Source: a virus (lineage: Duplodnaviria > Heunggongvirae > Uroviricota > Caudoviricetes). From it: 37,282 nucleotides of DNA. Below, piece by piece: positions 1 to 31,837 of the stretch. Location of the stretch: the IMG/VR virus record IMGVR_UViG_2778261667_000009; one strand, 5' to 3'. Each line of letters begins with the position of its first letter. Position 1 is the first letter of the stretch. A program made the translations under genes and the position numbers. The notes below the pieces were generated by a model. It was not told the origin of the DNA and ran no database searches. It saw only the letters and a program-made list of their open reading frames with translations.

Positions 1-297
1 TTAACGGATCAACAGCCAGACCAGCAGACACGCCACCATCGGCACAGCAAAATCCATCAGGCTTGCCACATCCCATACACGTGGATCAAAACCGCCCCAC
101 CACGGCATGTTGCTACGTTTCCCTTTCCCAAACTTTTCTATCCAGCGATATTCTGCCTGGGTGTGTTCACGCGCAATGAAGAACGTACAACCAGCTATCG
201 CTCCGTAAGCCCAGTATCCTGTTATTATTCCGACGAAACATTGCACAATTATTGATGCAATAGCATGGATAAAAGGAGAATAGTCAATCTTATTCAT
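1..297 (-). CDS. Small hypothetical membrane protein (98 aa), translationally coupled to the tailspike
   Basis: Complete ORF with stop at 1-3; its ATG overlaps the tailspike stop (ATGA). Two hydrophobic segments and a Trp-rich loop. No family recognised. Confidence 0.4.
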   Translation of the reverse strand: MNKIDYSPFIHAIASIIVQCFVGIITGYWAYGAIAGCTFFIAREHTQAEYRWIEKFGKGKRSNMPWWGGFDPRVWDVASLMDFAVPMVACLLVWLLIR

Positions 298-3053
298 CAG
301 AATGGCACCGTTTCAATAATCACACAGGGGCGCATTACATCCCCCATGCGGTTCTCAAGATACAGATAACCAGCACCATTTGGTGGCATAAATGATACGG
401 TGAATTTACCATCTGATCCCGTTGTACCAGTTAAGACAGATGAACTAAGTTCCACGTTAATTTTGTTAGACGACTGTTGTGGTGCAAAGTCTTTATCCGA
501 CGATACTCCAAGCAACATCCCAACCGCCCTATAATTTCTGTCTCGTTCATGGTCGAATAAAGAAACTATAGCCATTTTGGTTTTTGTCGAAATAGGTATG
601 CGCAGTGCCTGATCGTCGTTCAGGGTGGCAAAGAACTTATTGTCTCCCAGCCTGACAAACTCACCAGGGTTTATGATTTGCGCCGTGCGCAGGTCATACA
701 TACTGAACTGATTAGCTGCGCCACCGTCAAGATAGAATCGGTTTCCACCCTGATCGGAGATGTTTTTAAGAACCTTGGTCCCCTCACAGCGAATAAATGA
801 GAACTCATCATTCCCTGTATCCTGAGAGGATACGTAAACTACATTTCCGCCAATGATCAGGTTTTCTAATGTCAGCGCGTCACCGGCCCCGGACGCAATA
901 ATCCCAGCCAGCGTGACCTTTTTACCTATTGAGTTTTTCAGAGTGACTGGCAAGGTGCGAATATAGCCGTCATCTGCTCCACAGAACAATTCCAGCAACC
1001 CAATTGCTCGATAATAGGGTCTGGTGTCTGTGCTGTAACTATCTGCATAGTTGTACCCAATCTCGGTAAACGTGTCGTCATACACGAGGCCGTCTATTGT
1101 CAGCCCTCCTCCGTAGGTAAGGCGAGCGCAGCAGCGCGCCACATAACCGTGCACACGACAATCTTTGAGTGTTTCTCGCAAACCACGGAACGCGTATGGC
1201 AGCCAGCAATCAACGACTAAGCAATTTGTATAGTTGGAGCCGTATGCCGCTCCATGTGACCCCATACCCGAATTTTGGGTTTTGCCTACAGGCCAGAAAG
1301 CAGTTCCGGTATAGTCAACGCCTCCACCAGAGACGACGCTATTCACAACTTGCGTCTCCCAACTAATCATCTGCGCACCGATAATATCGATACCGCGACG
1401 GCAGCGATATGTCTTAACATTTTCAACCATGGCACCGAAACACTGGTTGATGCTAATTCCGTATCCTGTCCCATTCCAAGTATCATAACCTCGGTTTGCA
1501 TCCATCGCGGTAACATCGCGGAGCACAGGAAGGTATGATCCTCGTACACGCAGACAGGTGTCAGAAAAACCACTAACAGTTATACCCTCTATCAATGTAT
1601 CGGTAGAATACAATACATCCAGCCCTCTGAATCCAACGTCACCGGCCTTAGCATTGCTAGTGAGCTCGCGTGAAATAACAAACGCTCCTGTCATTTTAAA
1701 CGTAATAGGTTTGGATATGGTAACTACAGTCGCCCATTCCATCTTGAACTGATCTCCAGCAGCTGGAATGTTATTGAAAGCAGACTGACGACCACCGATT
1801 GTCAACAAGTTTCCGCTATAATGCGAAATGTATCTGGATTGACCAGCATTAGCGCCAGTTGTGAACGTAATACGGACATTTGCATTTTCGCGGGTCAATG
1901 TTATACCTGAAACTGTAAATGAAGCGCCGCTAGTTGCCGCTGTAACGGTTCCATATTGTATGTTTGACGCCGGAGCGGCATACCGCAACGTGTTGCACAG
2001 GCCAACACGCTTTGTAGCGTGATTTACAGATGAGACTTTGCAAACCTGCCCCTCTATATCCTGTCCACGATTATCTGTCTGAATTAGCCTGGATGTCTGG
2101 AAGCAAACGAGATCCCCGACTTCAATATCAGCAGTATCGGATAGGGTAACAACACCAGCATTTCTGGCAGCATCAACTACGAGGTTAACTTGTTTTAAAA
2201 ATACCCCTCGTATACGAATAGCGTAATCCGCGTCATAATTAGTAGCGTCAGGTGTGACTTTAGTGCTAACAAGGTGTACCCGCCCGTTCGCAATCCATTC
2301 AGTTACAGCTTGGCTATCTTGGGATCGCTTGACATGAATTGACGTATAATTATACACACCTTGTTCAAACACCAGTCTGCGCCCCTCATCTACTGCTACC
2401 TGAGACGCTGCCTGAATCGGGATTGTGTAGTCAGAGATTCCATCTCCCTGTTCACAGAACCACAACAATAAAATATCGCCATCATATTCCCGCTTCCATC
2501 GCCTACCGATAGCGTCGACCAATACAGTACCTCCATTATCATCAGTGGTTGAGTCGGTATCGTCACGCACGAATATGCCATCTCCACCATCGTTAATTAC
2601 AGAGCGTCCATAGCACTGGATTTTAATTCCTGCGCCAGAGTACGAACGGATGTCGTCGTAATTTCCCGCACCTATAAGCGACGCCCCACCAACCCCAGCT
2701 AATTCCATACTGAACTGATCAGGGTCATATTTAAGAACATTAGGAAAATAGAACTGCTGCGTGCCATATGCATCATATACAGCCATAGAATGGCCTTGCA
2801 CAGTTACAAACTTGGCAATCTGTCCGTTATATACCGGATATCCGGCAGCGTTAATGATGATTGGTTGAGATACAGGAACGTGAGAACCGTCTTCATTCTC
2901 CACATAAACCTGAATCTGGTTTTCTGGATTTACCGGGTCAGTGTCAATTTTACCGATATAAATTTTGCCATTGGCAACTGCTTTAAAAGAGCGCGCCATA
3001 GTGAAGAGTTGCGATGGCATACTCACTACAACATTGGCTGTAATGTCTGTCAT
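297..3053 (-). CDS. Tailspike protein (P22 gp9-like head-binding N-terminus, divergent receptor-binding body)
   Basis: First ~110 aa ([13 protein letters not shown]...KYDPDQF) closely match the P22 tailspike head-binding domain as I remember it. The remaining ~800 aa are Gly/Thr/Asn-rich and beta-helix-like, unlike P22 gp9. Confidence 0.85.
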
Positions 3054-3121
3054 TTAATTTGCTCCAGATACAGAAAATCGCTGCAGCGTTGCCGCAGTGA
3101 TGCATTATTAATCAAACAAAG

Positions 3122-3136
3122 AGACCGCCGTGGTCT
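3122..3136. promoter_or_regulatory. Putative Mnt-type operator palindrome (AGACC-N5-GGTCT) between tailspike and mnt
   Basis: Inverted repeat AGACCGCCGTGGTCT in the 146-bp divergent gap, reminiscent of the P22 Omnt dyad. Confidence 0.3.
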
Positions 3137-3199
3137 TATTGAGGATGTAACCATCAGATAATAAGATGCCGATCCACTCACAAAAGCGAGGCATCAAGA

Positions 3200-3451
3200 A
3201 TGGGAAGAGATGACCCGCAATTTAATCTGCGGCTACCTTACGAATTAAAGGAAAAAATAAAACAGCGAGCCAAATCCAATGGCCGCTCTCTTAATTCAGA
3301 ATTAGTTCAGATAGTGACTGACGCTGTATCAAAGCCATCCAAAATTTCAGGCTATCGAGACGATGCGGAACGCATCGCTGATGAGCAGTCCGAACTTGTT
3401 AAGAAGATGGTGTTTGATACGCTGAAGGATTTGTACAAAAAACCCACCTGA
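3200..3451 (+). CDS. mnt: Mnt repressor (ribbon-helix-helix, Arc/Mnt family)
   Basis: 83 aa, MGRDDPQFNLRLPYELKEKIKQRAKSNGRSLNSELVQIV...KKMVFDTLKDLYKKPT, near-identical in pattern to P22 Mnt. Confidence 0.85.
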   Translation: MGRDDPQFNLRLPYELKEKIKQRAKSNGRSLNSELVQIVTDAVSKPSKISGYRDDAERIADEQSELVKKMVFDTLKDLYKKPT

Positions 3452-3467
3452 CGGTGGGTTAATTTTT
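3443..3467. terminator. Bidirectional intrinsic terminator at mnt 3' end
   Basis: Hairpin CCCACC-tgac-GGTGGG followed by TTAATTTTT on plus and preceded by an A-run (T-run on minus). Confidence 0.55.
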
Positions 3468-3550
3468 GCATTTACCTGGGCCATATTGACTACTTATAAA
3501 ATGAGATCAATATTTAATCGCCCAATAACGGGTGTATGTTGAGGTATATC

Positions 3551-3730
3551 ATGGCGAAAAAACCAGGTGAAAACACAGGAAAAAACGGCGGAATATACCA
3601 AGAAGTTGGCCCACGCGGCGGTAAGAAAGACAATTTTGCCACCGTCAAGGACAACGAAAGGCTTCCGCCAACAACAAAGCCAGGTCATGGCTGGGTATTG
3701 GATAAGCGAACTCCAGACAGCAAAAAGTAA
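3551..3730 (+). CDS. Small Gly/Lys-rich hypothetical protein (59 aa), possibly YjzC-like
   Basis: ATG at 3551 with GAGG 7 nt upstream. Sequence MAKKPGENTGKNGGIYQEVGPRGG...; family assignment is from memory only. Confidence 0.4.
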   Translation: MAKKPGENTGKNGGIYQEVGPRGGKKDNFATVKDNERLPPTTKPGHGWVLDKRTPDSKK

Positions 3731-3743
3731 TAATCAAGCCTGG

Positions 3744-4109
3744 TCACTCCGGCTTTTTGATATGTCGCTCGCAGAACTCAACAAGCCTGCTCATTAAATA
3801 GCAGTAAGTCTCGTTGGCTCTTCCTGGTTCAACATCAACACCGACCCTTGAGCAGATATCGAATGCCATGTGAGCGCACTCATGGGCAATAGTAGATAGT
3901 TTGCCATTGAACACGCCTATCACATGCAAAACACCATTCTCGCTGCTCATTGTATGAGACGCTCCGTTGGCATCCGAGTCCTGCACGTCCACGCCAAGTT
4001 TTTGATGCAGGCGTTGCCATTCTGGAAAGTCTCTACAAAACACAATTGTACCGCTCTCAAAGAGCGGAACGAGCATCTTTGGTACGTTTCCAATGTTAAC
4101 TTTTTTCAT
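3744..4109 (-). CDS. Small HExxH protein, probable standalone ImmA/IrrE (M78)-like metallopeptidase
   Basis: 121 aa from ATG 4109 (AGGA upstream). Motif [14 protein letters not shown] resembles the M78 'FTlaHElgH' zinc-binding motif. Confidence 0.45.
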
Positions 4110-4130
4110 GGTATCCTGCACAAAACTAAG

Positions 4131-4634
4131 GAGGTTGGTGTGTCTGATTCTATGAGTTACGCTGTGCTAGTTGCCGCAACTCTATTTCTGGGGATAGGGT
4201 TGCAGATTGCGTGGTTCTTTTTTTCTAGTTTTATTAAACGTAAAAGAATTGAATCAAGGATATCTGAGATTTCTATTGCTATAGGGAAAAATGCTGAAAA
4301 TCCAGAGAATGAGGCCTGCGCACTGAATTACCTTAAAGAAAAGTTTTCCCCTGAAAAATTTGAAAACAGAATTACTGATGCTCTTGGATTGGTAATATCA
4401 GTAATTCATATGCCACTAAGTTTGCTGATAACAGTGTGGTACTTCGCCATGATCGCCGGAAGAATATTTGGTTTCATGAATATAGAGCCTGTAGTTCTTT
4501 GGGTTCCAATGATACTGCAATTGTTGTTAAGCGTTGCTATCTTTATTTTTTCTGTTTTTATAAAAATTATCTTTGGAAGATACCCAGGAGAAGCGAAGGG
4601 ATTTAATAAAGAATTCATAAAAACTATAAAATAA
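4131..4634 (+). CDS. Polytopic membrane protein, positional analogue of P22 SieA (superinfection exclusion)
   Basis: GTG start 5 nt after AAGGAGG. An N-terminal TM helix, ~50-aa soluble segment and 2-3 C-terminal TM helices. AT-rich by eye. Sits between gene 16 and mnt as sieA does in P22; homology not established. Confidence 0.45.
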
Positions 4635-4656
4635 ATGCCGTCCTTGGCTTACAGTG

Positions 4657-6498
4657 CTACTGCCGGGTAGCTTCGTTAACTAAGAGCGGGCGCACGGCAG
4701 TAGCCGCCTGATTTAGCGCTCTTTCATAAGCTGGCGTTCCAGCTTTAGTGTTTGCCAGACGTAAGAGCGCATTCCTTGCTGCTTTGGACTCATACAAGCG
4801 CATCATTGCACCGAAACCAGCCTCAAGCCCCATTGATACGCCAAGAGTCGCAGTTGCGCCAATCGTCCTTATCCTGTTGGCTTGTGATTGCCCAGTCTGA
4901 GTTACTATATTTGCGGTGTCTGACCTTGCTGTTTGCTGTAGAACTTCATGAAGAGCATCAAGCTCTTTCATGTGCTTTCCAGAAAAAATAGTGTTGTAAA
5001 TTTCACCGCCTGACTGAGATTTCAGCTTATTAACTTCAGTGATGAACTTGGCTGGAGAGTCACCGGCCTTTTCCGCTATTTTGCTGACGTAAGCAGCACG
5101 CATAGCATCTTTCCCTTTATCATCCAGTGCGCTCCAGATTCGTTTCACGTCAGATGGTTTTCTGCTTAATACAACGGTATTTATAAGTTCAGGACTGGCT
5201 TCACTGCTTGCCTTGTTGAGCTTGTTAGCAATGTTTTTATTAAGCACCTTATTATAAACGTTTGCATAATCGGAATTTGCTTTAAGGTATTTTGCTGCGT
5301 CTGATGCACCGAGGTTTTTAGCAACTGCGTTACGAAGGTCTTTTGACATTGCATTCTCTACCATATTGGTAGCTGCTTTTGCCTGGTTGGGGAAGACCAT
5401 AGCATCTCCCTGTACATTAGATCTAAATGCTGTTCTGTGCTGACGCAAGAGATCAAACGTAACATCCAAATCAGTTGCAGGGTTTGCTAATTCTTCACGT
5501 AGGTTACGCAAGGATGTAAGCAGGCTTTGATTGGCAGACGTTCCAAGTCGTTCCTGTCTTGCGATCGCTGTATTCAGAGCATTCATGGTATTTGTGGTAT
5601 CAACTGCAGCATTACCCATTTTATTGGTGACGTCATTGATAACAGCGCCAGCGGCATCCTTCCGTCTCCTTAGCGTGGTGGTCAGAGATTTCACCACATC
5701 ATCCGGGTTGTACTCACCAAAACGGTCAAAATAATTACTTACCAACTTACTACGCGTTGCATATTGCTCTGCCCTTTTACTGCCAGTTCCAAGAATGGCC
5801 CCCTCAGCACCCTGAGTAAGGCCACGAGTGAAAGCATTTTTCGGTGGGATGACATCAGATGTCATTGGTGTCACACCCATTGATTCTGAGGTGGCAATTT
5901 TTTTCGCCACTTCTGGCGCAATATCGCCTTTTATAGCCGTTATTCCGCGGCCTATTCCCTTTGCTGCTGCGGAAAGAACCCCCTGAGCGGCAAGGTTAAC
6001 TCCGGCATTTTTAGCTGCATTTTGTGCGAAATCGCCTTTCTGGTTTGCGGCTTCTGCCAGTGATCCAATAGCCATGCTTCCTGCCGTTCCAACTCCTGGA
6101 ACTAAATACCCGCCAATTGTTTCTCCAGCTTGAGCGTAGGGGTCTGTCGGTCGATCGACTGGACGATAGACATCATCCAATACTTTTGGCCCACCAAGCC
6201 CCTGACTGATTGCATTAATCAGACTTGCGCCACCCTGCAATACGTCAAATGGTATGTTTACCAGACCACGACCAGCCTGCTCTGCAATTTGTCCTGCACT
6301 TTGACCACCTGTGAGCCAATCGCCAGCTTGTTGCATCAATGATGGTTCTTCACGTGCTGGTTCATTATTGGCCTGATTAACTGTTTGTTGCTGAACAGCC
6401 TGACCAGCAAAATACTCATCAATGGCGGTGCCAATATCTTCGGTGCTCGTGCCATCAGGAAAGGTAAATGTCTTACCGTTTGCAGTTACTTTCATCAT
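4657..6498 (-). CDS. Ejection (E) protein, P22 gp16-like
   Basis: 613 aa, Ala/Gly/Gln-rich; size and position after gp20 match P22 gene 16. Confidence 0.75.
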
Positions 6499-7910
6499 TC
6501 CACCGTAAATTGAATGCCTGATTTTGAGGTATATGATCCAACCTGATTCCGTGGTTCTCCTGAAGGTGTCGAATCTTGTGCTGGCGCTGCGTCAGTATTC
6601 AATGACATATACCGCTTAACGGCACTCCCCAATGATTCACCTTTTTTAACATCCAACCCCAATATCTGACCGCCATTACGCGATTGTCCAGGGTTGCCAT
6701 TCGCGCTCATCCACTCAGCTTTAAACTCATTAAACTGCGCGTTTCGTCGCTCAAGGTTTGCCATTGCATCAAGCCATCTTGCAACCGTCTCAGGGTTATC
6801 CATGTCAGTTGGCGCACCCTGTCGAACGATCTCAACGTCTTTATCCGTTGCTGGGCCGGGAGGTAGGAATTTAAGAACCTGACTGTTAACAAGGGCATTT
6901 TGGCGAATGCGCAAATCACGCAATGTCGTATCGCTTCCGGTAAGTTTTGCGAACATGTTCTGTGCGTTACCGAACAAACCTGTCGTTGGTTTTTCTGCTC
7001 TGAACTGTTGAGCAAGCGCACTCATGGAATTGGCTGAGTTTGATGATGCTGTGGCATTGTTTACAGCTGTCTCGATGCCTTTTTCCATGTTTACTGACAG
7101 CTTAGGTGCTTCGCTAATCAACTGCTGAGCCTTTTCCTGCGCTTGCTGCATCTTAAACCCGAACTCTTGCTGATCCAGAGCCAAGCGTTGTGCTGCGATA
7201 TTGTGCCCAGTCATTGCTGACTGATAGGAAAGGTTTTGCCCTCTCGCCTGAAGTGCTTCACCAGCCTGATTGCTGCGGATTGTCTCTGCCAGCCTGCCTC
7301 GGTCAATCTCACGACCAGCCATCTTGTCCTGAACAGCAAACGCCTTTTCTGGCCCAAGTGCACCGAGAGACATAGTAGTCAGCATGTGTGATAGCTGCTC
7401 TGGATTCTGAATACCTGTCTGAATCATCCAGTCAGCATTCGCCCCCACGCGATTTAACCTGTCCTTGTTATCAGTAATGAATTTACTGTAGGCTTCCGGT
7501 CCCTGAGAAAGAGCGACGTTAGCCCTCATGGCTAAATCGCCCATATCGTTGCGTTGCTGCTCATTAAGACCGGAAAACGCCTGTTGTGCCTGTGCAACAA
7601 ACGCTGGATTTTCCTGGGCAAACTTAAATAGTCCCGATGGATCACCAGAAGCCCATGCATCAGCGTGAACCTTATTGAACGCACTAATAGCTTTCTGTTG
7701 CTGTTCCTGCTTATAAATATCAGCAACTCCAGCCAGACCACGTAACGCGGTCAGACCAACGTTATTTGCACCTGATCGAGCCAGTTCATTGTTTTCGCGG
7801 ATCAGACCAAGCGTTGCGTTAATGTCGCTTGCCTTTGGCGCATTCTCATTTTGCGCACCGATGCCAGCAAGAAACCCACCAGAATTAATACCCTGTTGCC
7901 ACGTAGCCAT
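6495..7910 (-). CDS. Ejection protein, P22 gp20-like
   Basis: 471 aa, same length and position as P22 gp20; start overlaps the upstream gene. Confidence 0.75.
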
Positions 7911-7920
7911 TGATTAACCC

Positions 7921-8610
7921 TTAAAACAGTGAACCAAGCAGACCAAGACCAGCACCAATACCAGCACCCCACGGAGTTGATAGCTCGAGAGCACTGGCTA
8001 TGCCACCCCCCAAAAGCGCACCGGATGCAGCACCACTAACACCCTGCTGCAATGCTGACGGTCGGTTGGCGTTTGCCGCCGCCAGCGCCGCGCTTTGCTG
8101 TGAAATCTGACTCATGTTGTTGGCATATGTTTGCCCGGCGTTTGCCTGACCTTGCAGCGCGCCAAGACCAATATTTGCCAGATTCTGGTAGTTGTTCATT
8201 TGTCCAGATAGCCATTGCTGACCAAGCGTTGGTGCGATTGTTGCTAACTGATTACTGGTTGCGGTGGAACCTAATCCACCTGTTGCTTCCGCTGCCGCCA
8301 GACTCTGATAGCGCGCCTGACTTGCAAGGTCTTTGTACTGCTGAGAGTTGTAATACTGGTTAAGCGCCTGACCTTGCCCCTCCAGAGACGATAAGTTCTC
8401 GAGGCTGCCGACATACTTCTCAGCCAGAGGAGTAAACGGTTTCAGGTTGTTCATGATGGTGTTGAACTGCTGATTTTGCAGGTCTGCGGCATACTTCTGA
8501 GCTTCTGCTGCATACTTTGCGCTTTTATCGGAGCCACCTTTCCCGCCTTTTTCAGGGCAATAAGGTTCCTCGCCGCGCAGTTTTCTGCCCAGCTTAAATG
8601 CATATAACAT
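7921..8610 (-). CDS. Ejection protein, P22 gp7-like
   Basis: 229 aa, Gln/Ala/Gly-rich, in the P22 gene 7 position. Confidence 0.7.
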   Translation of the reverse strand: MLYAFKLGRKLRGEEPYCPEKGGKGGSDKSAKYAAEAQKYAADLQNQQFNTIMNNLKPFTPLAEKYVGSLENLSSLEGQGQALNQYYNSQQYKDLASQARYQSLAAAEATGGLGSTATSNQLATIAPTLGQQWLSGQMNNYQNLANIGLGALQGQANAGQTYANNMSQISQQSAALAAANANRPSALQQGVSGAASGALLGGGIASALELSTPWGAGIGAGLGLLGSLF

Positions 8611-24616: not shown

Positions 24617-24982
24617 ATGGATAAAAAATACACAGATAAATTAGAAGCTTGCGAGTACTTGCAAAATGTTGACATTTGGCTTGATAATGGAAATGTTGAC
24701 ATGTTTAAAGTATCAGATATTTTAAACAATCTGTTGAAATTAGGTGATTTTGAGAAATTTGACCATACACTTTCACTTTTAAAAGCTGAAAGCTTTGCAG
24801 AGAAAATAAAGTTTCGTCTTTCACGAGTTGAAAGTCAACGGGATAGTATATTACACGTTATCAGAGAAGGTGATAAGAATAAAAACCTTAGAAAAATAAT
24901 ACTAAAATCATATGACACAAAAAAAAACAGAAATAAAATCACTATTCAATATATTCTCCAGAGAAAGCGGGCTATATTTTAG
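24617..24982 (+). CDS. N-terminal fragment of a split glycosyltransferase-like gene
   Basis: 121-aa ORF with AGGA RBS; runs through the A9 tract at 24919-24927 and stops 55 nt later. Deleting one A fuses it in frame to the downstream ORF. Confidence 0.4.
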   Translation: MDKKYTDKLEACEYLQNVDIWLDNGNVDMFKVSDILNNLLKLGDFEKFDHTLSLLKAESFAEKIKFRLSRVESQRDSILHVIREGDKNKNLRKIILKSYDTKKNRNKITIQYILQRKRAIF

Positions 24983-25937
24983 GAATAACCATGGAAATCA
25001 CTACAGTTATTTTGAAGATGATTTCTTAGATTACAGCAATGCTGTAAAAAACACACTTAGAGACAAAGGTTTTGCGAAAAAACTTTTACAGCACAATCAA
25101 GAAAAATTTAGAATTCTCGATGATGCGATAGTTCATACTTTCAATCATAATTTCTATGCCATTTCAGATAAAAATGGTTATTACGACTCAACAAATGCAG
25201 CCCGTCTGGCAAAACTTAGCCATGTTAATTATATTAATAACGACAATGAAATAAGATATATTGATAAGGCTATTTTTTTGCCCATAGACCATGCATGCAA
25301 TAACTATTATCATGCTCTTAGTGAATGTTTCGGAGGATTGAAATTTATAACAGAATTACCTGATGACATTCCTATAGTCTTTACGGAAGACAGATTTAAT
25401 GTATTGGATTTTATTGCATCGCGCCTATGTATAGACCGCAAACGTTTTATTTCTATACAAACACTTGCTAATACTCGAATTAAAAAGGCACTACAATTAT
25501 ATCCATATAGTTTTAACTGGAGTGAAGATATTTTTCATTTTTTTAAAAAAATATCATACCCACAAACAACAGACTCTAAAATATATATTTCAAGGAGAAA
25601 GTCAAGCCGTGGCCCATTAAATGAATTTGAAGTTGAAAATGAGCTTAAAGAATTAGGTTTTGATATACTATACGCTGAAGACCTTGACTTTGCGCAACAG
25701 GTTTCAATTTTCTCAAATGCAAGCATCCTTATTGGCCCTCATGGCGCAGGCCTCACCAACATTCTTTTTATGCCTAAGAATAGCACCCTTATCGAAATAT
25801 TTAACAGTGAATATATCCAACCTGATTTCTATCTAAGATCTCGCCATAATAACATGAAATATGCATGTACCATTCAATTTAATAATACCTTCAATATCGA
25901 AGAGATAAAAGAAATCATAGAAAGGTGTCAAGAATAA
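24912..25937 (+). CDS. Glycosyltransferase, GT61/DUF563-like (C-terminal portion of the split gene)
   Basis: 341 aa; C-terminal region ...SRRKSSRGPLNEFEVENELKELGFDILYAEDLDFAQQVSIFSNASILIGPHGAGLTNILFMPKNSTLIEIF matches the DUF563/GT61 signature as remembered. No SD before its ATG; strongly AT-rich by eye. Confidence 0.5.
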   Translation: MTQKKTEIKSLFNIFSRESGLYFRNNHGNHYSYFEDDFLDYSNAVKNTLRDKGFAKKLLQHNQEKFRILDDAIVHTFNHNFYAISDKNGYYDSTNAARLAKLSHVNYINNDNEIRYIDKAIFLPIDHACNNYYHALSECFGGLKFITELPDDIPIVFTEDRFNVLDFIASRLCIDRKRFISIQTLANTRIKKALQLYPYSFNWSEDIFHFFKKISYPQTTDSKIYISRRKSSRGPLNEFEVENELKELGFDILYAEDLDFAQQVSIFSNASILIGPHGAGLTNILFMPKNSTLIEIFNSEYIQPDFYLRSRHNNMKYACTIQFNNTFNIEEIKEIIERCQE

Positions 25938-29256: not shown

Positions 29257-29366
29257 TATCAATTCCTATTGGTATTGCAATGAACAAATAATAGCAATGC
29301 GTATTAATCATAACAATAGCAAAACGTGTTTTGACCATCAATACGCAAGCGTATAAATTAAAACTT
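29257..29366. promoter_or_regulatory. OR/PR/PRM region: repeated ATAGCAAT/ATTGCAAT operator motifs with divergent promoters
   Basis: Minus-strand PR-like -35 TTGTTA (29316-29311), 17-nt spacer, -10 TATTAT (29293-29288). Plus-strand PRM-like -35 TTGACC (29331-29336) and -10 TATAAAT (29352-29358) ending ~8 nt before the cI ATG. Three AATAGCAAT-type motifs overlap these. Confidence 0.45.
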
Positions 29367-30059
29367 ATGAAAAAAGAAACTCTTGCTGATCGCTTAAACC
29401 TAGCGATGGAACAATCTGGAATGTCTCAAGGCGCTCTTGCAAAGGCGTCTGGCGTAGCTCAACCCACAATCTGGAGACTGACAAGCGGCAACGCGCGCGG
29501 CTCAACAAAAATTGTTGAAATAGCTAATGCATTGGGTGTTCGAACAGAGTGGCTCTCATCAGGCATAGGCCCGATGAGAAATGACGGTCAACAATTAGGG
29601 AAGCCTACTGCCAACCATCCCAAATACTTCAAGATTGACGTTCTTGATATAGAAGTGAGTGCCGGGCCGGGAGTCATCAACCGTGAGTTTGTAGAAGTTC
29701 TACGCTCGGTTGAGTACTCATTTGACGATGCTCGTCACATGTTCGATGGCAGGAAGGCAGAAAATATCCGCATCATTAACGTACGCGGTGACAGCATGTC
29801 AGGAACGATCGAACCAGGTGATCTTCTGTTCGTTGATATCACTGTTAAATCTTTCGACGGTGATGGTATCTATGCGTTTCTGTATGACGACACCGCCCAT
29901 GTAAAGCGCCTGCAAATGATGAAGGATAAGCTGCTGGTTATCTCTGATAACAAGAGCTACTCACCGTGGGACCCGATCGAGAAAGACGAGATGAACCGCG
30001 TGTTCATCTTCGGGAAAGTCATCGGGAGCATGCCGCAGACATATAGAAAGCATGGGTAG
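29367..30059 (+). CDS. cI: CI-type prophage repressor (HTH plus S24 LexA-like autopeptidase domain)
   Basis: 230 aa from ATG 29367 (track's longer form uses TTG); N-terminal HTH (MSQGALAKASGVAQPTIWRL), C-terminal GDSM and Lys-containing S24-like domain. Confidence 0.8.
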   Translation: MKKETLADRLNLAMEQSGMSQGALAKASGVAQPTIWRLTSGNARGSTKIVEIANALGVRTEWLSSGIGPMRNDGQQLGKPTANHPKYFKIDVLDIEVSAGPGVINREFVEVLRSVEYSFDDARHMFDGRKAENIRIINVRGDSMSGTIEPGDLLFVDITVKSFDGDGIYAFLYDDTAHVKRLQMMKDKLLVISDNKSYSPWDPIEKDEMNRVFIFGKVIGSMPQTYRKHG

Positions 30060-30188: not shown

Positions 30189-31328
30189 ATGGCAGCGGTT
30201 GAATTTCAATTGTCTAGGAAGATGATTGATTGGATAGCAAATTCTCAAGGAGTTTCTATCGAAACTCTTGCTGACCAAGTCATGCCCAAAAAGATTAATA
30301 AATTTCTTAACGGAGTGGTAAGTAAATCCGCAGCAGAAAAACTGGCAAAAATTGGAGGAATCCCTTTCGGTTTTTTATTTCTTGAAACGCCACCAACTCC
30401 AGCCAAACCCAAGATCCCTGACTTAAGGCAAGCTATAAATAGCCGTGAGTTAGGAAAAGATTTTTTTGATGTTTACTATGATATAGAATATAAACTTGAG
30501 TGGTACAAAGACTATTTAAGAGAAAATGGTAATGATGATCCACTCGATTTTATTGGTAAATTTAAATTTAATAGAAAATTAAATTATAAGGTTGTTGCTA
30601 CAGACATAGCAAACACAATACATTTTGATATACAAAAAGAGATAAAAAATGTCACTTTTGAGAGCTATTTTTCTAAAGTGGCAAAACTAATAGAAGACAC
30701 TGGCGTATTAGTTTTCAAGAATGGTGTTGTGGGTAATAATAATAAAAGAAAACTTGACACGCGAGAGTTTCGTGGTTTCTGTATATCTGATAGCGTTGCT
30801 CCGATCATTTTTGTAAATAGCTCGGACGCGTTATCTGCGCAGGTATTTACATTATTTCATGAGGTGGCTCATCTTTGGCTTGGAGTCGATGGAGTCTCTG
30901 GGTGGGACACAGAAAAAAACATAGAATCTTTTTGTAATAAAGTTGCTGCTGAAATCTTAATGCCTGATAATCTCTTCAAATCTTTCTGGCTTAATGCATC
31001 CAGCGATAATAATTATTATCGAGTAAAAGAGGTTTCTAAGTTATTTAAGGTTAGTGATTTCGCTTGTGCAATCAAAGCGTTACAATTAGATTTGATAGAA
31101 AGAAACACTTTGGAGATAATTAAAGATCAAGCTTACAATAAGCCCAAAAAAGAATCTAATGGTGGTTCTTTCTTTAACACATTACCTGTTCGTAACAGTC
31201 CAAAACTTACGAATATAATAATTTCCAAAGCAATGTCTCAACAATTACCATTAAGGGAAGCAGGCGTACTGCTAAATGTAAAAGCAGATACAGTTGTTGA
31301 ATTTTATAAAAAACGAGAATCTCTATGA
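30189..31328 (+). CDS. HTH-fused ImmA/IrrE-family (M78, COG2856-like) metallopeptidase-like protein
   Basis: 379 aa; N-terminal HTH-like segment, central RGFCISDSVAPIIFVNSSD...VFTLFHEVAHLWLG matching the M78 HExxH signature, plus ~120-aa C-terminal extension. AGGTGA RBS; AT-rich by eye. Confidence 0.55.
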   Translation: MAAVEFQLSRKMIDWIANSQGVSIETLADQVMPKKINKFLNGVVSKSAAEKLAKIGGIPFGFLFLETPPTPAKPKIPDLRQAINSRELGKDFFDVYYDIEYKLEWYKDYLRENGNDDPLDFIGKFKFNRKLNYKVVATDIANTIHFDIQKEIKNVTFESYFSKVAKLIEDTGVLVFKNGVVGNNNKRKLDTREFRGFCISDSVAPIIFVNSSDALSAQVFTLFHEVAHLWLGVDGVSGWDTEKNIESFCNKVAAEILMPDNLFKSFWLNASSDNNYYRVKEVSKLFKVSDFACAIKALQLDLIERNTLEIIKDQAYNKPKKESNGGSFFNTLPVRNSPKLTNIIISKAMSQQLPLREAGVLLNVKADTVVEFYKKRESL

Positions 31329-31837
31329 TTCATAATGGAAAATTCTTAATTGATAGTAATGTCTTCATAGAGGCAAAAAACTTTGCATATAACTTCAATT
31401 ATTGCAAAATATTTTGGGATTTTCTTCTCGCTTTACACATGAATGGTCTGATTTATAGCATTAATGCTGTAAAAAAAGAACTATGTGCAAAAGATGATCC
31501 ATTGTGTAAATGGATTAAAGAAGAGTTACCATCATCATTCTTCGAAGATGAGCATAGTTCAATAGAAAATTATGCAAAGTTAATAAATTGGTCAACTAAA
31601 TTAGATGTTACCGAAAAGGCAAAGTTTGACTTTGCAAGCCATGAAAAAGCAGATGCTTTTTTAATAGCCCATGCGATGACACATGGATATACTATTATTA
31701 CCCATGAGAAACCATCCGGTGGCAAACCTAAAAAAAGAATAATGATCCCGGATGCTGCTGCTTCTCACGGCGTTAAGACATTAACACTATATGAATTTCT
31801 TCCAAGATACGCTAGTCATAATTTTTCTTTGAAATAA
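31325..31837 (+). CDS. PIN-like (DUF4411-like) putative nuclease, partner of the upstream peptidase
   Basis: 170 aa; N-terminus KFLIDSNVFIEAKN is PIN-like with a first acidic residue; start overlaps the upstream stop (ATGA). Family assignment from memory. Confidence 0.5.
   Translation: MIHNGKFLIDSNVFIEAKNFAYNFNYCKIFWDFLLALHMNGLIYSINAVKKELCAKDDPLCKWIKEELPSSFFEDEHSSIENYAKLINWSTKLDVTEKAKFDFASHEKADAFLIAHAMTHGYTIITHEKPSGGKPKKRIMIPDAAASHGVKTLTLYEFLPRYASHNFSLK

Follow-up and report, generated by a model that had tools for sequence, protein, structure and literature searches.

A probable arc- and ant-less form of the P22-type accessory region, with SieA, an orphan Mnt and a zincin-like protein, HkcC

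What is an Mnt repressor doing in a phage locus with neither arc nor ant, and what do the genes beside it encode? The locus in question, positions 3054-4634, was studied within a stretch of viral DNA of 37,282 nucleotides, which is called the window in the following. It had been described in advance as a remodelled immI-type locus, comprising an orphan mnt, a standalone M78-like peptidase and a membrane protein in the position of SieA; this description is referred to as the original prediction. Our analysis makes it very probable that the locus as a whole is a natural accessory region of the P22 type without arc and ant, containing SieA, a self-regulating Mnt, Orf59a and a zincin, HkcC. The locus is already known, and it is ordinary apart from the small zinc-protease-like gene hkcC. 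The features considered are given below by position, with the strand where one applies.

297-3053, minus strand: tailspike gene, 918 aa; N-terminus matching PF09008 Head_binding (E 2e-67, residues 1-113), with matches to tail spike PHROGs
3122-3136: putative Mnt operator dyad AGACCGCCGTGGTCT (AGACCGC-C-GTGGTCT), in a position homologous to the P22 Mnt operator
3139-3167, plus strand: Pmnt homologue, TTGAGG-17 bp-TAAGAT, placed by the position of the annotated P22 mnt promoter and by a conserved alignment block
3200-3451, plus strand: mnt, 83-aa ribbon-helix-helix repressor (PF03869 Arc, E 1.5e-22; PF11423 Repressor_Mnt, E 2.3e-18)
3441-3460: terminator-like bidirectional hairpin over the mnt stop codon, with an 8-pair stem (5 G-C) and T-runs on both strands
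3551-3730, plus strand: orf59a, small all-beta protein of 59 aa, putatively of the YjzC family (phrog_3202, E 7e-31; P22 Orf59a, 98.3%)
3736-3758: hairpin between the convergent orf59a and hkcC, homologue of the P22 'mnt terminator' (L001 3884-3906, offset 148)
3744-4109, minus strand: hkcC, soluble protein of 121 aa with the zincin signature H76-E77-x-x-H80 ... E100 (phrog_1365, E 1.4e-39)
4079-4109, plus strand: putative PsieA, homologous with the P22 'sieA promoter' (L001 4227-4257), inside the first hkcC codons
4140-4634, plus strand: sieA, type A superinfection-exclusion inner-membrane protein, 164 aa (phrog_7745 'SieA-like', E 1.8e-108, 164/164 positions)
4657-6498, minus strand: gene 16 homologue, DNA ejection protein, 76% identical to P22 gp16; right border of the accessory region
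30189-31328: true M78 protein (PF06114), adjoining cI

From mid-mnt to gene 16 (3353-4700) the window was 96.7% identical to phage P22 at the DNA level. The encoded proteins were 100% (HkcC), 98.3% (Orf59a), 92% (SieA) and 74.7% (Mnt) identical to those of P22, and the P22 annotation gives mnt, orf59a, sieA, the mnt operator and the promoters in the identical order. The P22 genes of the region include sieA, hkcC and 59a (Villafane et al., 2008; PMC2629481). The locus is thus not newly remodelled, as had been proposed; the 3' half of mnt, orf59a, the 121-aa ORF and sieA are P22's own genes. Positions 3054-4634 would correspond to the accessory region between gene 16 and the tailspike gene of P22-like phages, known as the immI region or 'ant moron', here probably in a naturally occurring form that has neither arc nor sar nor ant and is made of four P22 gene orthologues. 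It adds one more variant to a stretch which, within the late operon of P22-like phages, has already been described as changing fastest. The differences from P22 were confined to the left end of the segment. For annotation, the 121-aa ORF becomes hkcC and the membrane protein becomes SieA; neither of them counts as a new candidate peptidase or exclusion protein.

The absence of arc and ant was borne out. In tblastn searches, mnt itself was the sole match of P22 Arc in the window, and P22 Ant gave no match (E <= 0.01) in the whole 37 kb; Rfam matches to sar-like or other RNAs were absent from 2900-4800. Phage L is without ant, arc and sieA and has kept a mnt homologue (PMC8022706), and mnt-only versions were described for ST64T and ST104 (Villafane et al., 2008; PMC2629481). 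The same junction of mnt and tailspike gene was found in phages Gally, vB_EcoP-720R6, ST160, SE1, L, ST64T and ST104. The state is also common in databases: ant-less loci with the mnt type of the window made up 25 of the 80 IMG/VR loci, the gene set being identical in 5, and seven complete E. coli genomes carry the whole segment at about 98% identity.

The gene at the right end had been predicted to encode an AT-rich polytopic membrane protein of 167 aa with a strong Shine-Dalgarno sequence and a GTG start. Most of this stood: the GC content is 34.9% against 46.6% in the window, the Shine-Dalgarno sequence TAAGGAGG lies at 4127-4134 before the GTG at 4140, and the protein has three TM-like hydrophobic segments; its length, however, is 164 aa from the GTG, as in the P22 sieA annotation. 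The position assigned to it was right as well, but the phrog_7745 match and the motif FxRYPxEAxxFNK at residues 145-157 identify it as SieA proper, not merely as a protein in the SieA position. This motif, a cytoplasmic one, is given as conserved in SieA by Leavitt et al. (2024; PMC10883804). Their criteria for SieA also include a gene position in P22-like prophages that is flanked by the homologues of genes 16 and 9, and the gene in the window lies between the gene 16 homologue and the tailspike gene. The spacer between hkcC and sieA is identical to that of P22. With 92% identity to P22 SieA over 164/164 aa, the protein would provide the exclusion function expected of the locus. Both P22 SieA and HS1 SieA were shown experimentally to block DNA entry of superinfecting P22-like phages (PMC10883804). 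By analogy with P22, SieA made from the prophage would reside in the inner membrane and block DNA delivery of incoming P22-like phages through interference with the gp20/gp16 conduit.

The oppositely oriented ORF of 121 aa was present as predicted, and its product was 100% identical to 'hkcC: unknown' of HK620 and to an unannotated ORF of P22. In the P22 reference genome this ORF lies under the features 'sieA promoter' and 'mnt terminator'. Its orientation is that of the late operon, from gene 16 toward the tailspike gene, and homologues in three distinct genomic settings also pointed the same way as the late genes. The phage family of HkcC comprised 526 representative clusters, and H76, E77, H80 and E100 were the sole invariant columns among 122 members with 23-74% identity. 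The AF2 model of HkcC (pLDDT 88.6) has strands at 11-13, 21-25, 49-56 and 59-66 and helices at 28-37, 71-88 and 100-116. The predicted order, strand-strand-helix-strand-strand-HExxH helix-Glu helix, corresponds to a sheet with a backing helix, an active-site helix and a third-ligand helix. Structural matches in BFVD reached a TM of 0.82, and the named ones were SprT-like or metalloprotease; those named SprT-like had E 1.6e-4 (TM 0.66) and 3.7e-4. By sequence, three of the 122 family members matched SprT-like PF10263 (best E 1e-4) and none matched M78, and HkcC of the window itself matched no Pfam family at E <= 1 and nothing relevant in NCBIfam or PADLOC. A profile of 21 HkcC sequences gave no match in the PDB; with a profile of 122 sequences the best matches were all metalloproteases, though weak (E >= 0.014). 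In the Foldseek comparison of the model with the PDB, the best zincin was SPRTN, at a non-significant E of 0.14. We found no functional study in the literature on hkcC, orf59a or phage SprT-like proteins.

The original prediction of two M78-type peptidases in the prophage was half right. The protein beside cI is a true M78 protein, whereas HkcC is zincin-like only, has no PF06114 match and fails every M78 test, so the claim of two such peptidases is wrong. Alignment of HkcC with the window's own M78 protein by hhalign was limited to 16 columns, the motif only, at 4% probability. The BFVD entries named 'IrrE protein' ranked 37 or lower (E 0.025 and 0.044; TM 0.40 and 0.20), with 36 better matches above them, including the SprT-like ones, and no similarity to the IrrE/ImmA fold was found in the PDB. 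No gene for a cognate HTH repressor or substrate is located beside hkcC, whose neighbours are orf59a (convergent) and sieA (divergent). From its motif, its orientation and the predicted fold, we take HkcC to be, most probably, a minimal zincin made during lytic growth that acts as a zinc-dependent hydrolase or peptidase; its relatives appear to be the SprT-like proteins and not M78/ImmA.

The 59-aa ORF noted beyond mnt is likewise present and is orf59a of P22. Its product reached PF14168 at E 0.0013 and 19.4 bits, against a gathering cut-off of 25; among its distant homologues PF14168 is present, and UniRef names them 'YjzC family protein'. Orf59a would thus belong to the YjzC family, and its AF2 model (pLDDT 86, three strands) is that of a folded all-beta protein. 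A promoter-like site, TTGACT-17 bp-AATATT, was located at 3486-3514 before the gene; together with the strong terminator-like hairpin after mnt it indicates that orf59a may be transcribed independently of Mnt. In the 3736-3758 hairpin one stem pair is lost relative to P22, with one substitution in the intergenic stretch of 13 bp.

At the left end, mnt is divergent from the tailspike gene, and the intergenic region (3054-3199) has the predicted length of exactly 146 bp. The predicted Mnt-operator-like dyad at 3122-3136 was the sole match in the 37-kb window to the pattern AGACCACNGTGGTCT with up to two mismatches, where 0.07 were expected by chance. In alignments it coincided with the annotated P22 mnt operator AGGTCCACCGTGGACCT, its positional homologue, and with a dyad that is perfect in Gally, L, ST160 and CUVET21. 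Its short arms escaped the inverted-repeat finder, which gave no result for 3040-3210, and the dyad was confirmed through pattern search and alignment. The perfect form in relatives is AGACCAC-N-GTGGTCT (AGACCACTGTGGTCT); in the window the left half-site departs from it by an A-to-G change that is rare, occurring in just one other locus among 32, and that could weaken Mnt binding. The dyad and the -35 hexamer form the best-conserved block of the intergenic alignment. A hairpin at 3081-3097 was considered as a terminator before the tailspike gene and was dropped, as it is not conserved in Gally, L and ST160.

The mnt gene is a mosaic with respect to P22, with a breakpoint at about 3353-3365: the N-terminal DNA-binding half has diverged (Gln6 instead of His6), whereas the C-terminal tetramerisation half is nearly identical. 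Across the 32 loci the operator type strictly covaried with the Mnt N-terminus at residue 6, Gln6 going with GACCAC half-sites and His6, as in P22, with GTCCAC. This covariation argues for continued selection on binding, and such matched specificity classes suggest that the 'orphan' Mnt is still selected for DNA binding. Classical work on residue 6 of Mnt and altered specificity, by Youderian et al. in 1983 and by Knight and Sauer in 1989, reportedly linked this residue to operator specificity, and the pairs Gln6/GACCAC and His6/GTCCAC are the natural counterpart of those mutants. The operator specificity of Mnt appears to have co-evolved with its dyad site.

The -35 hexamer of Pmnt abuts the operator exactly as in P22, where the promoter reads TTGAGA, 17 bp, TATCAT. 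The promoter scan did not list Pmnt because it agrees with the consensus in 8/12 positions, which is below the threshold. On the other side, the positional equivalent of Pant, TCGGCA-17 bp-TACATC, agrees in 7/12 and is without the conserved final T, and the scan gave no promoter-like site on the minus strand of the intergenic region. With the Pant equivalent apparently degenerate, a leftward promoter that Mnt could repress is not evident, and Pmnt would be left as the sole promoter within reach, so that Mnt most likely regulates its own small operon. In the mechanism we propose, an Mnt tetramer would bind the dyad beside the -35 of its own promoter and most likely control mnt and, by read-through, orf59a; for late transcripts entering the tailspike gene it would be at most a weak roadblock.

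Two other explanations of the orphan Mnt were weighed against this self-regulating repressor. A distance of only 68 bp separates the operator from the tailspike start codon downstream, and the operator is in the path of any leftward transcript. Villafane et al. mention the view that, in P22, late transcription entering the tailspike gene is affected by this region, with Mnt and Arc as possible participants (PMC2629481). These points would suit a remodelled immI switch, where Mnt is re-targeted to tailspike transcription and a second M78-type peptidase works in an ImmA-like way in a circuit of immunity or anti-repression; HkcC has the HExxH, and a short segment with the motif aligns with the window's own M78 protein. 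We consider such a switch very unlikely, given the degenerate hexamers of the Pant equivalent, the minus strand of the intergenic region without a promoter-like site, the failed M78 tests of HkcC and the lack of an HTH repressor adjoining its gene. Moreover, hkcC is 100% conserved in P22, with full immI, and in the immI-less HK620, and is therefore not tied to the loss of arc and ant. The authors of the phage L study raised a different possibility, that mnt and its operator are functionless relics after an arc-ant deletion which have not yet been lost, and the genetic work cited by them did not find a functional immI in L (PMC8022706). The half-site substitution in the window operator would agree with decay, as would the observation that Mnt of the Q6 type never adjoins ant in the sampled loci. 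However, the mnt ORF is intact in all loci, and the dyad arms and the -35 are best conserved although the intergenic region has an 11-bp indel and substitutions (relatives being about 81% identical overall). Since operator and Mnt N-terminus also covary as matched pairs, and Proteus and Pasteurellaceae have Arc/Mnt-like genes with their own dyads preceding orf59a homologues, we regard decay as unlikely and prefer the self-regulating Mnt. Trans-immunity, i.e., Mnt repressing Pant of incoming phages, was without support: in none of the sampled loci and phage records does this operator type occur together with arc/ant.

Tentatively, HkcC could be the first known representative of a widespread but so far unrecognised group of zinc metallohydrolases of about 120 aa (HExxH plus Glu, distantly SprT-like) in tailed phages, expressed late and acting on a specific host or phage protein; in the branch of P22 and HK620 it would travel with Orf59a and may act on it. 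In another reading, hkcC and orf59a would form a functional mobile two-gene cassette, e.g., with a late protease removing or processing a small prophage-made protein. The convergent pair with a gap of 13-30 nt is indeed kept in Klebsiella, Rosenbergiella, Xenorhabdus, Proteus and Pasteurellaceae, with HkcC 46-63% and Orf59a 64-80% identical to the window proteins, and two of the pairs are found within siphovirus tail operons unrelated to P22. Nevertheless, where hkcC homologues are more remote (about 40% identity), they are found between lysis and terminase genes and orf59a is missing, and orf59a homologues occur without hkcC beside holins, GmrSD/HEPN or HigBA; co-transfer alone can account for linkage over about 0.6 kb. 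We therefore judge a functional cassette to be improbable. An obligatory pairing was rejected, as each gene was found without the other. HkcC, as a predicted minimal zincin, is a good and cheap target for studying the role of such proteins in phages: P22 and HK620, in which it is 100% conserved, are both well developed as genetic systems.

Compared with known systems, HkcC has only the HExxH motif in common with Peptidase M78 (ImmA/IrrE, PF06114). With phage SprT-like proteins and minimal zincins it shares the small single domain and the HExxH on a long helix after a small sheet. It differs from the SprT-like proteins in the third invariant residue, a Glu 20 residues past the motif, which is the gluzincin pattern, and in reaching no Pfam model, PF10263 being reached by 3/122 relatives; the match to solved SPRTN is non-significant. 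SieA agrees with type A SieA of P22 in its length of 164 aa, GTG start, Shine-Dalgarno sequence, three hydrophobic segments and motif, and differs from it by 13 amino-acid changes and by a host that is E. coli and not Salmonella. The tailspike has a head-binding N-terminus of the P22 type, whereas its receptor-binding part is unrelated to P22 gp9.

With the P22 immI region (sieA, hkcC, orf59a, mnt, arc, sar and ant, between gene 16 and gene 9) the locus shares position, gene order and the geometry of operator and Pmnt. It differs in being without arc, sar and ant, in its apparently degenerate Pant equivalent and in the diverged N-terminal half of Mnt (Gln6) with a matching altered operator. 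In the mnt-only phages L, ST64T, ST104, SE1, ST160, Gally and vB_EcoP-720R6, mnt is directly divergent from the tailspike gene throughout, and they share with the window the operator type GACCAC-N-GTGGTC and the absence of arc/ant. The content of the remaining region is different: L and ST64T have orf62 at the site and are without sieA, orf59a and hkcC, ST160 and SE1 have hkcC with neither sieA nor orf59a annotated, and Gally has other genes between mnt and gene 16. The window thus presents the left end of the mnt-only phages joined to the right end of P22.

The locus between the tailspike gene and the gene 16 homologue had the following layout, the coordinates of the gap and of the ORFs from the tailspike to sieA being taken from the ORF list and the raw sequence.

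Gene layout of the locus and its neighbours
297-3053, minus strand, tailspike, 918 aa
3054-3199, intergenic gap, 146 bp
3200-3451, plus strand, mnt, 83 aa
3551-3730, plus strand, orf59a, encoding a 59-aa protein
3744-4109, minus strand, hkcC, encoding a 121-aa protein
4127-4134, Shine-Dalgarno TAAGGAGG of sieA
4140-4634, plus strand, sieA, membrane protein, GTG start
4657-6498, minus strand, P22 gene 16 homologue
6495-7910, minus strand, P22 gene 20 homologue
7921-8610, minus strand, P22 gene 7 homologue

All sequence features described for 3054-4634 in the original prediction were present in the ORF list and raw sequence. The GTG start and Shine-Dalgarno of sieA were found as described, but the protein is 164 aa long from the GTG, not 167; its gene is indeed AT-rich (GC 34.9% vs 46.6% in the window). 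The absence of arc and ant was borne out as well, since across the whole 37 kb P22 Ant gave zero matches and P22 Arc matched mnt alone. An Rfam search of 2900-4800 gave no RNA match.

At the level of sequence, the DNA comparison with P22 is the decisive result for the gene identities. Positions 3353-4700 are 96.7% identical to P22, and in translated comparison the 121-aa protein was 100% identical to the P22 ORF, Orf59a 98.3%, SieA 92.1%, and Mnt 74.7%. Mnt matched Pfam Arc and Repressor_Mnt. The similarity to P22 falls off within mnt at approximately 3353-3365, the N-terminal DNA-binding half being diverged and the C-terminal tetramerisation half near-identical; this mosaic breakpoint coincides with the boundary of the two halves. 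To its left the window resembles the E. coli phages Gally and vB_EcoP-720R6 (96-97% identity from tailspike start to mid-mnt), followed by ST160 and SE1 (81%), and L, ST64T, and ST104 (about 75%). In all seven phages mnt directly adjoins the tailspike gene, and for L, ST64T, and ST104 the arrangement without arc and ant is already published (PMC8022706, PMC2629481).

The putative Mnt operator is the dyad AGACCGCCGTGGTCT at 3122-3136; it alone in the window fits AGACCACNGTGGTCT when up to two mismatches are allowed (0.07 matches expected by chance). In the intergenic alignment, relatives carry the perfect dyad AGACCAC-N-GTGGTCT followed at once by TATTGAG, and the P22 dyad, AGGTCCAC-C-GTGGACCT, is likewise followed by ATTGAG; the P22 annotation names this dyad as Mnt operator and TTGAGA as the -35 of the mnt promoter, Pmnt.

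Pmnt versions
Window: -35 TTGAGG, spacer 17 bp, -10 TAAGAT
Phage L: -35 TTGTGG, spacer 17 bp, -10 TATGAT
P22: -35 TTGAGA, spacer 17 bp, -10 TATCAT

The position of Pmnt is conserved, because the three versions align at the same spacing. The opposing ant promoter of P22, Pant, reads TTGACA, 17 bp, TATATT, whereas the window counterpart reads TCGGCA, 17 bp, TACATC (7/12, without the final T). A promoter scan of the mnt-tailspike gap found no promoter on either strand.

Among the compared loci, Mnt proteins starting with MGRDDPQFNLRL were paired with xGACCAC-N-GTGGTCx (22 loci) and those starting with MARDDPHFNFRM with GGTCCAC-N-GTGGACC (10 loci), with zero exceptions. Gln6 thus goes with GACCAC and His6 with GTCCAC, and neighbouring residues covary too (3200-3235). 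Residue 6 is reportedly a specificity determinant of Mnt in the classical work of Youderian et al. (1983) and Knight and Sauer (1989). Given this, the strict covariation fits matched repressor-operator classes that would be kept by selection. The window operator carries an A-to-G change in its left half-site, otherwise seen in one locus only (L032). In our reading Mnt would be functional and bind the putative operator here. As Pant appears degenerate, its likely role would be control of its own promoter, possibly extending to orf59a, with the caveat that a terminator-like hairpin lies after mnt and a promoter-like site ahead of orf59a. In Proteus and one Pasteurellaceae genome, orf59a homologues are preceded by Arc/Mnt-like genes that have dyads of their own upstream, an arrangement which fits a repressor-orf59a unit. 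Less probably, Mnt may gate late transcripts running into the tailspike gene.

The 121-aa protein had been proposed as an M78-like peptidase. It matches PHROG 1365 (function uncharacterised) and is identical to an HK620 protein annotated "hkcC: unknown". The gene, a conserved ORF of 121 codons, is missing from the P22 reference annotations (BK000583 / NC_002371 13861-14223; 3892-4257 in our P22 reference locus, L001), whose "mnt terminator" and "sieA promoter" features cover its two ends. Villafane et al. (2008) count hkcC among the P22 genes here, together with sieA and 59a. A word-indexed search gave 32 relatives with identity down to 43%, while the full profile search gave 526 representative clusters (E <= 0.001), nearly all of 110-140 aa. 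In 122 members with 23-74% identity, the sole invariant columns were H76, E77, H80, and E100, the HExxH-plus-Glu pattern expected of a gluzincin. The AlphaFold2 model was confident (pLDDT 88.6); in it, two hairpins and one helix precede the HExxH helix, which is followed by a helix starting at E100. No solved structure matched significantly; the best weak matches were all metalloproteases (SPRTN, myroilysin, astacins). Among predicted viral structures there were 24 matches at E <= 0.001 (TM up to 0.82), mostly uncharacterised, the named ones being "SprT-like" and "Metalloprotease", while "IrrE" entries came no higher than rank 37 and did not exceed TM 0.40. Pfam assigned 3/122 members to SprT-like, 1/122 to DUF5700 (putative zinc peptidase), and 0/122 to M78, and hhalign against the M78 protein of the window aligned the motif alone (4% probability). 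Membership in M78 was rejected on these Pfam, hhalign, and IrrE results, and because of the invariants, model, and structure matches HkcC is predicted to be a small zincin-like protein instead.

The direction of hkcC in P22-like phages is that of genes 16, 20, 7, and the tailspike. Homologues share the direction of the tail genes in two prophages of siphovirus type and that of lysis and terminase genes in five genomes (Kluyvera, Citrobacter, Mixta, Atlantibacter). Judging from this orientation, hkcC is likely expressed late in lytic growth; a further reading, in which HkcC is the first known member of a family of mini-metalloproteases made late by phages, is less likely than not. A paralogous branch (38-42% identity) occurs in enterobacterial prophages and in the P22-like phages L, ST64T, epsilon34, and g341c (database matches H135-H144). 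In loci L012-L016 and L019 it lies between lysis genes and small terminase, always co-oriented and without orf59a.

Orf59a matches PHROG 3202 (function uncharacterised) and is well conserved, with 9 positions that are invariant across 46 sequences. An all-beta fold is predicted (pLDDT 86), and the family scan and homologues tentatively link it to the YjzC family. Its gene faces hkcC convergently across 13-30 nt in Klebsiella, Rosenbergiella, Xenorhabdus, Proteus, and Pasteurellaceae; either gene is also found where its partner is missing. Simple co-transfer may account for the pair, and a functional link between the two is a tentative possibility. In the gap between them, the hairpin at 3736-3758 (the "mnt terminator" of P22) has lost one stem pair through G to T at 3741.

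The prophage was expected to carry two M78-type peptidases. It has one, because only the protein beside cI carries the true domain.

Module adjacent to cI
29331-30059, cI-like repressor, Peptidase_S24 plus HTH
From 30189, after the repressor, Peptidase_M78 protein, 379 aa (PF06114, E 1.2e-13)
To 31837, after the M78 gene with stop and start overlapping, DUF4411 gene (E 1e-37)

The M78 protein resembles CapP (E 1e-14) and RmrA in PADLOC. Both genes (30189-31837) follow the repressor gene in the same orientation, and together they resemble a defence or toxin-antitoxin-type module of two genes that the prophage would express.

Further genes were observed outside these regions. Just downstream of the tailspike gene, a 98-aa ORF (1-297, minus strand) with two hydrophobic segments matches phrog_1443 (function uncharacterised, E 9e-50) and has no match in Pfam or PADLOC. 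In the region 24617-25937 (plus strand, among genes mostly on the minus strand), a 121-aa ORF without any family match stands ahead of the gene for a 341-aa protein of glycosyltransferase family 61 (E 2e-23); the region may represent an inserted surface-modification gene. With 918 aa, the tailspike is longer than P22 gp9, which has 667 aa (2,004 bp). Its resemblance to P22 is confined to the head-binding domain, the first 113 residues; the remainder is weakly similar to spikes of the colanic-acid-degrading and K1-lyase types, a sign of a different surface polysaccharide receptor.

For the membrane protein, the family scan gave a full-length match to PHROG 7745, "superinfection exclusion SieA-like" (E 1.8e-108). 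It has three hydrophobic segments, and residues 145-157 carry the known SieA motif at the position described in PMC10883804. P22 SieA on its own is enough to stop DNA injection, and the mutations that escape it lie in gp16 and gp20 (Leavitt et al., 2024, PMC10883804). The identity with the P22 protein, PHROG 7745, and the motif mark the membrane protein of the window as SieA. Neither proposed candidate is new: the peptidase candidate is the known gene hkcC, and the exclusion candidate is the known gene sieA. The full segment recurs, approximately 98% identical and with these four genes annotated, in 7 complete E. coli genomes. Among 80 IMG/VR loci, sampled as loci carrying hkcC, the mnt type of the window without ant occurred in 25 and an identical gene set in 5. 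The locus is the known accessory region of P22, in a common form without arc and ant.
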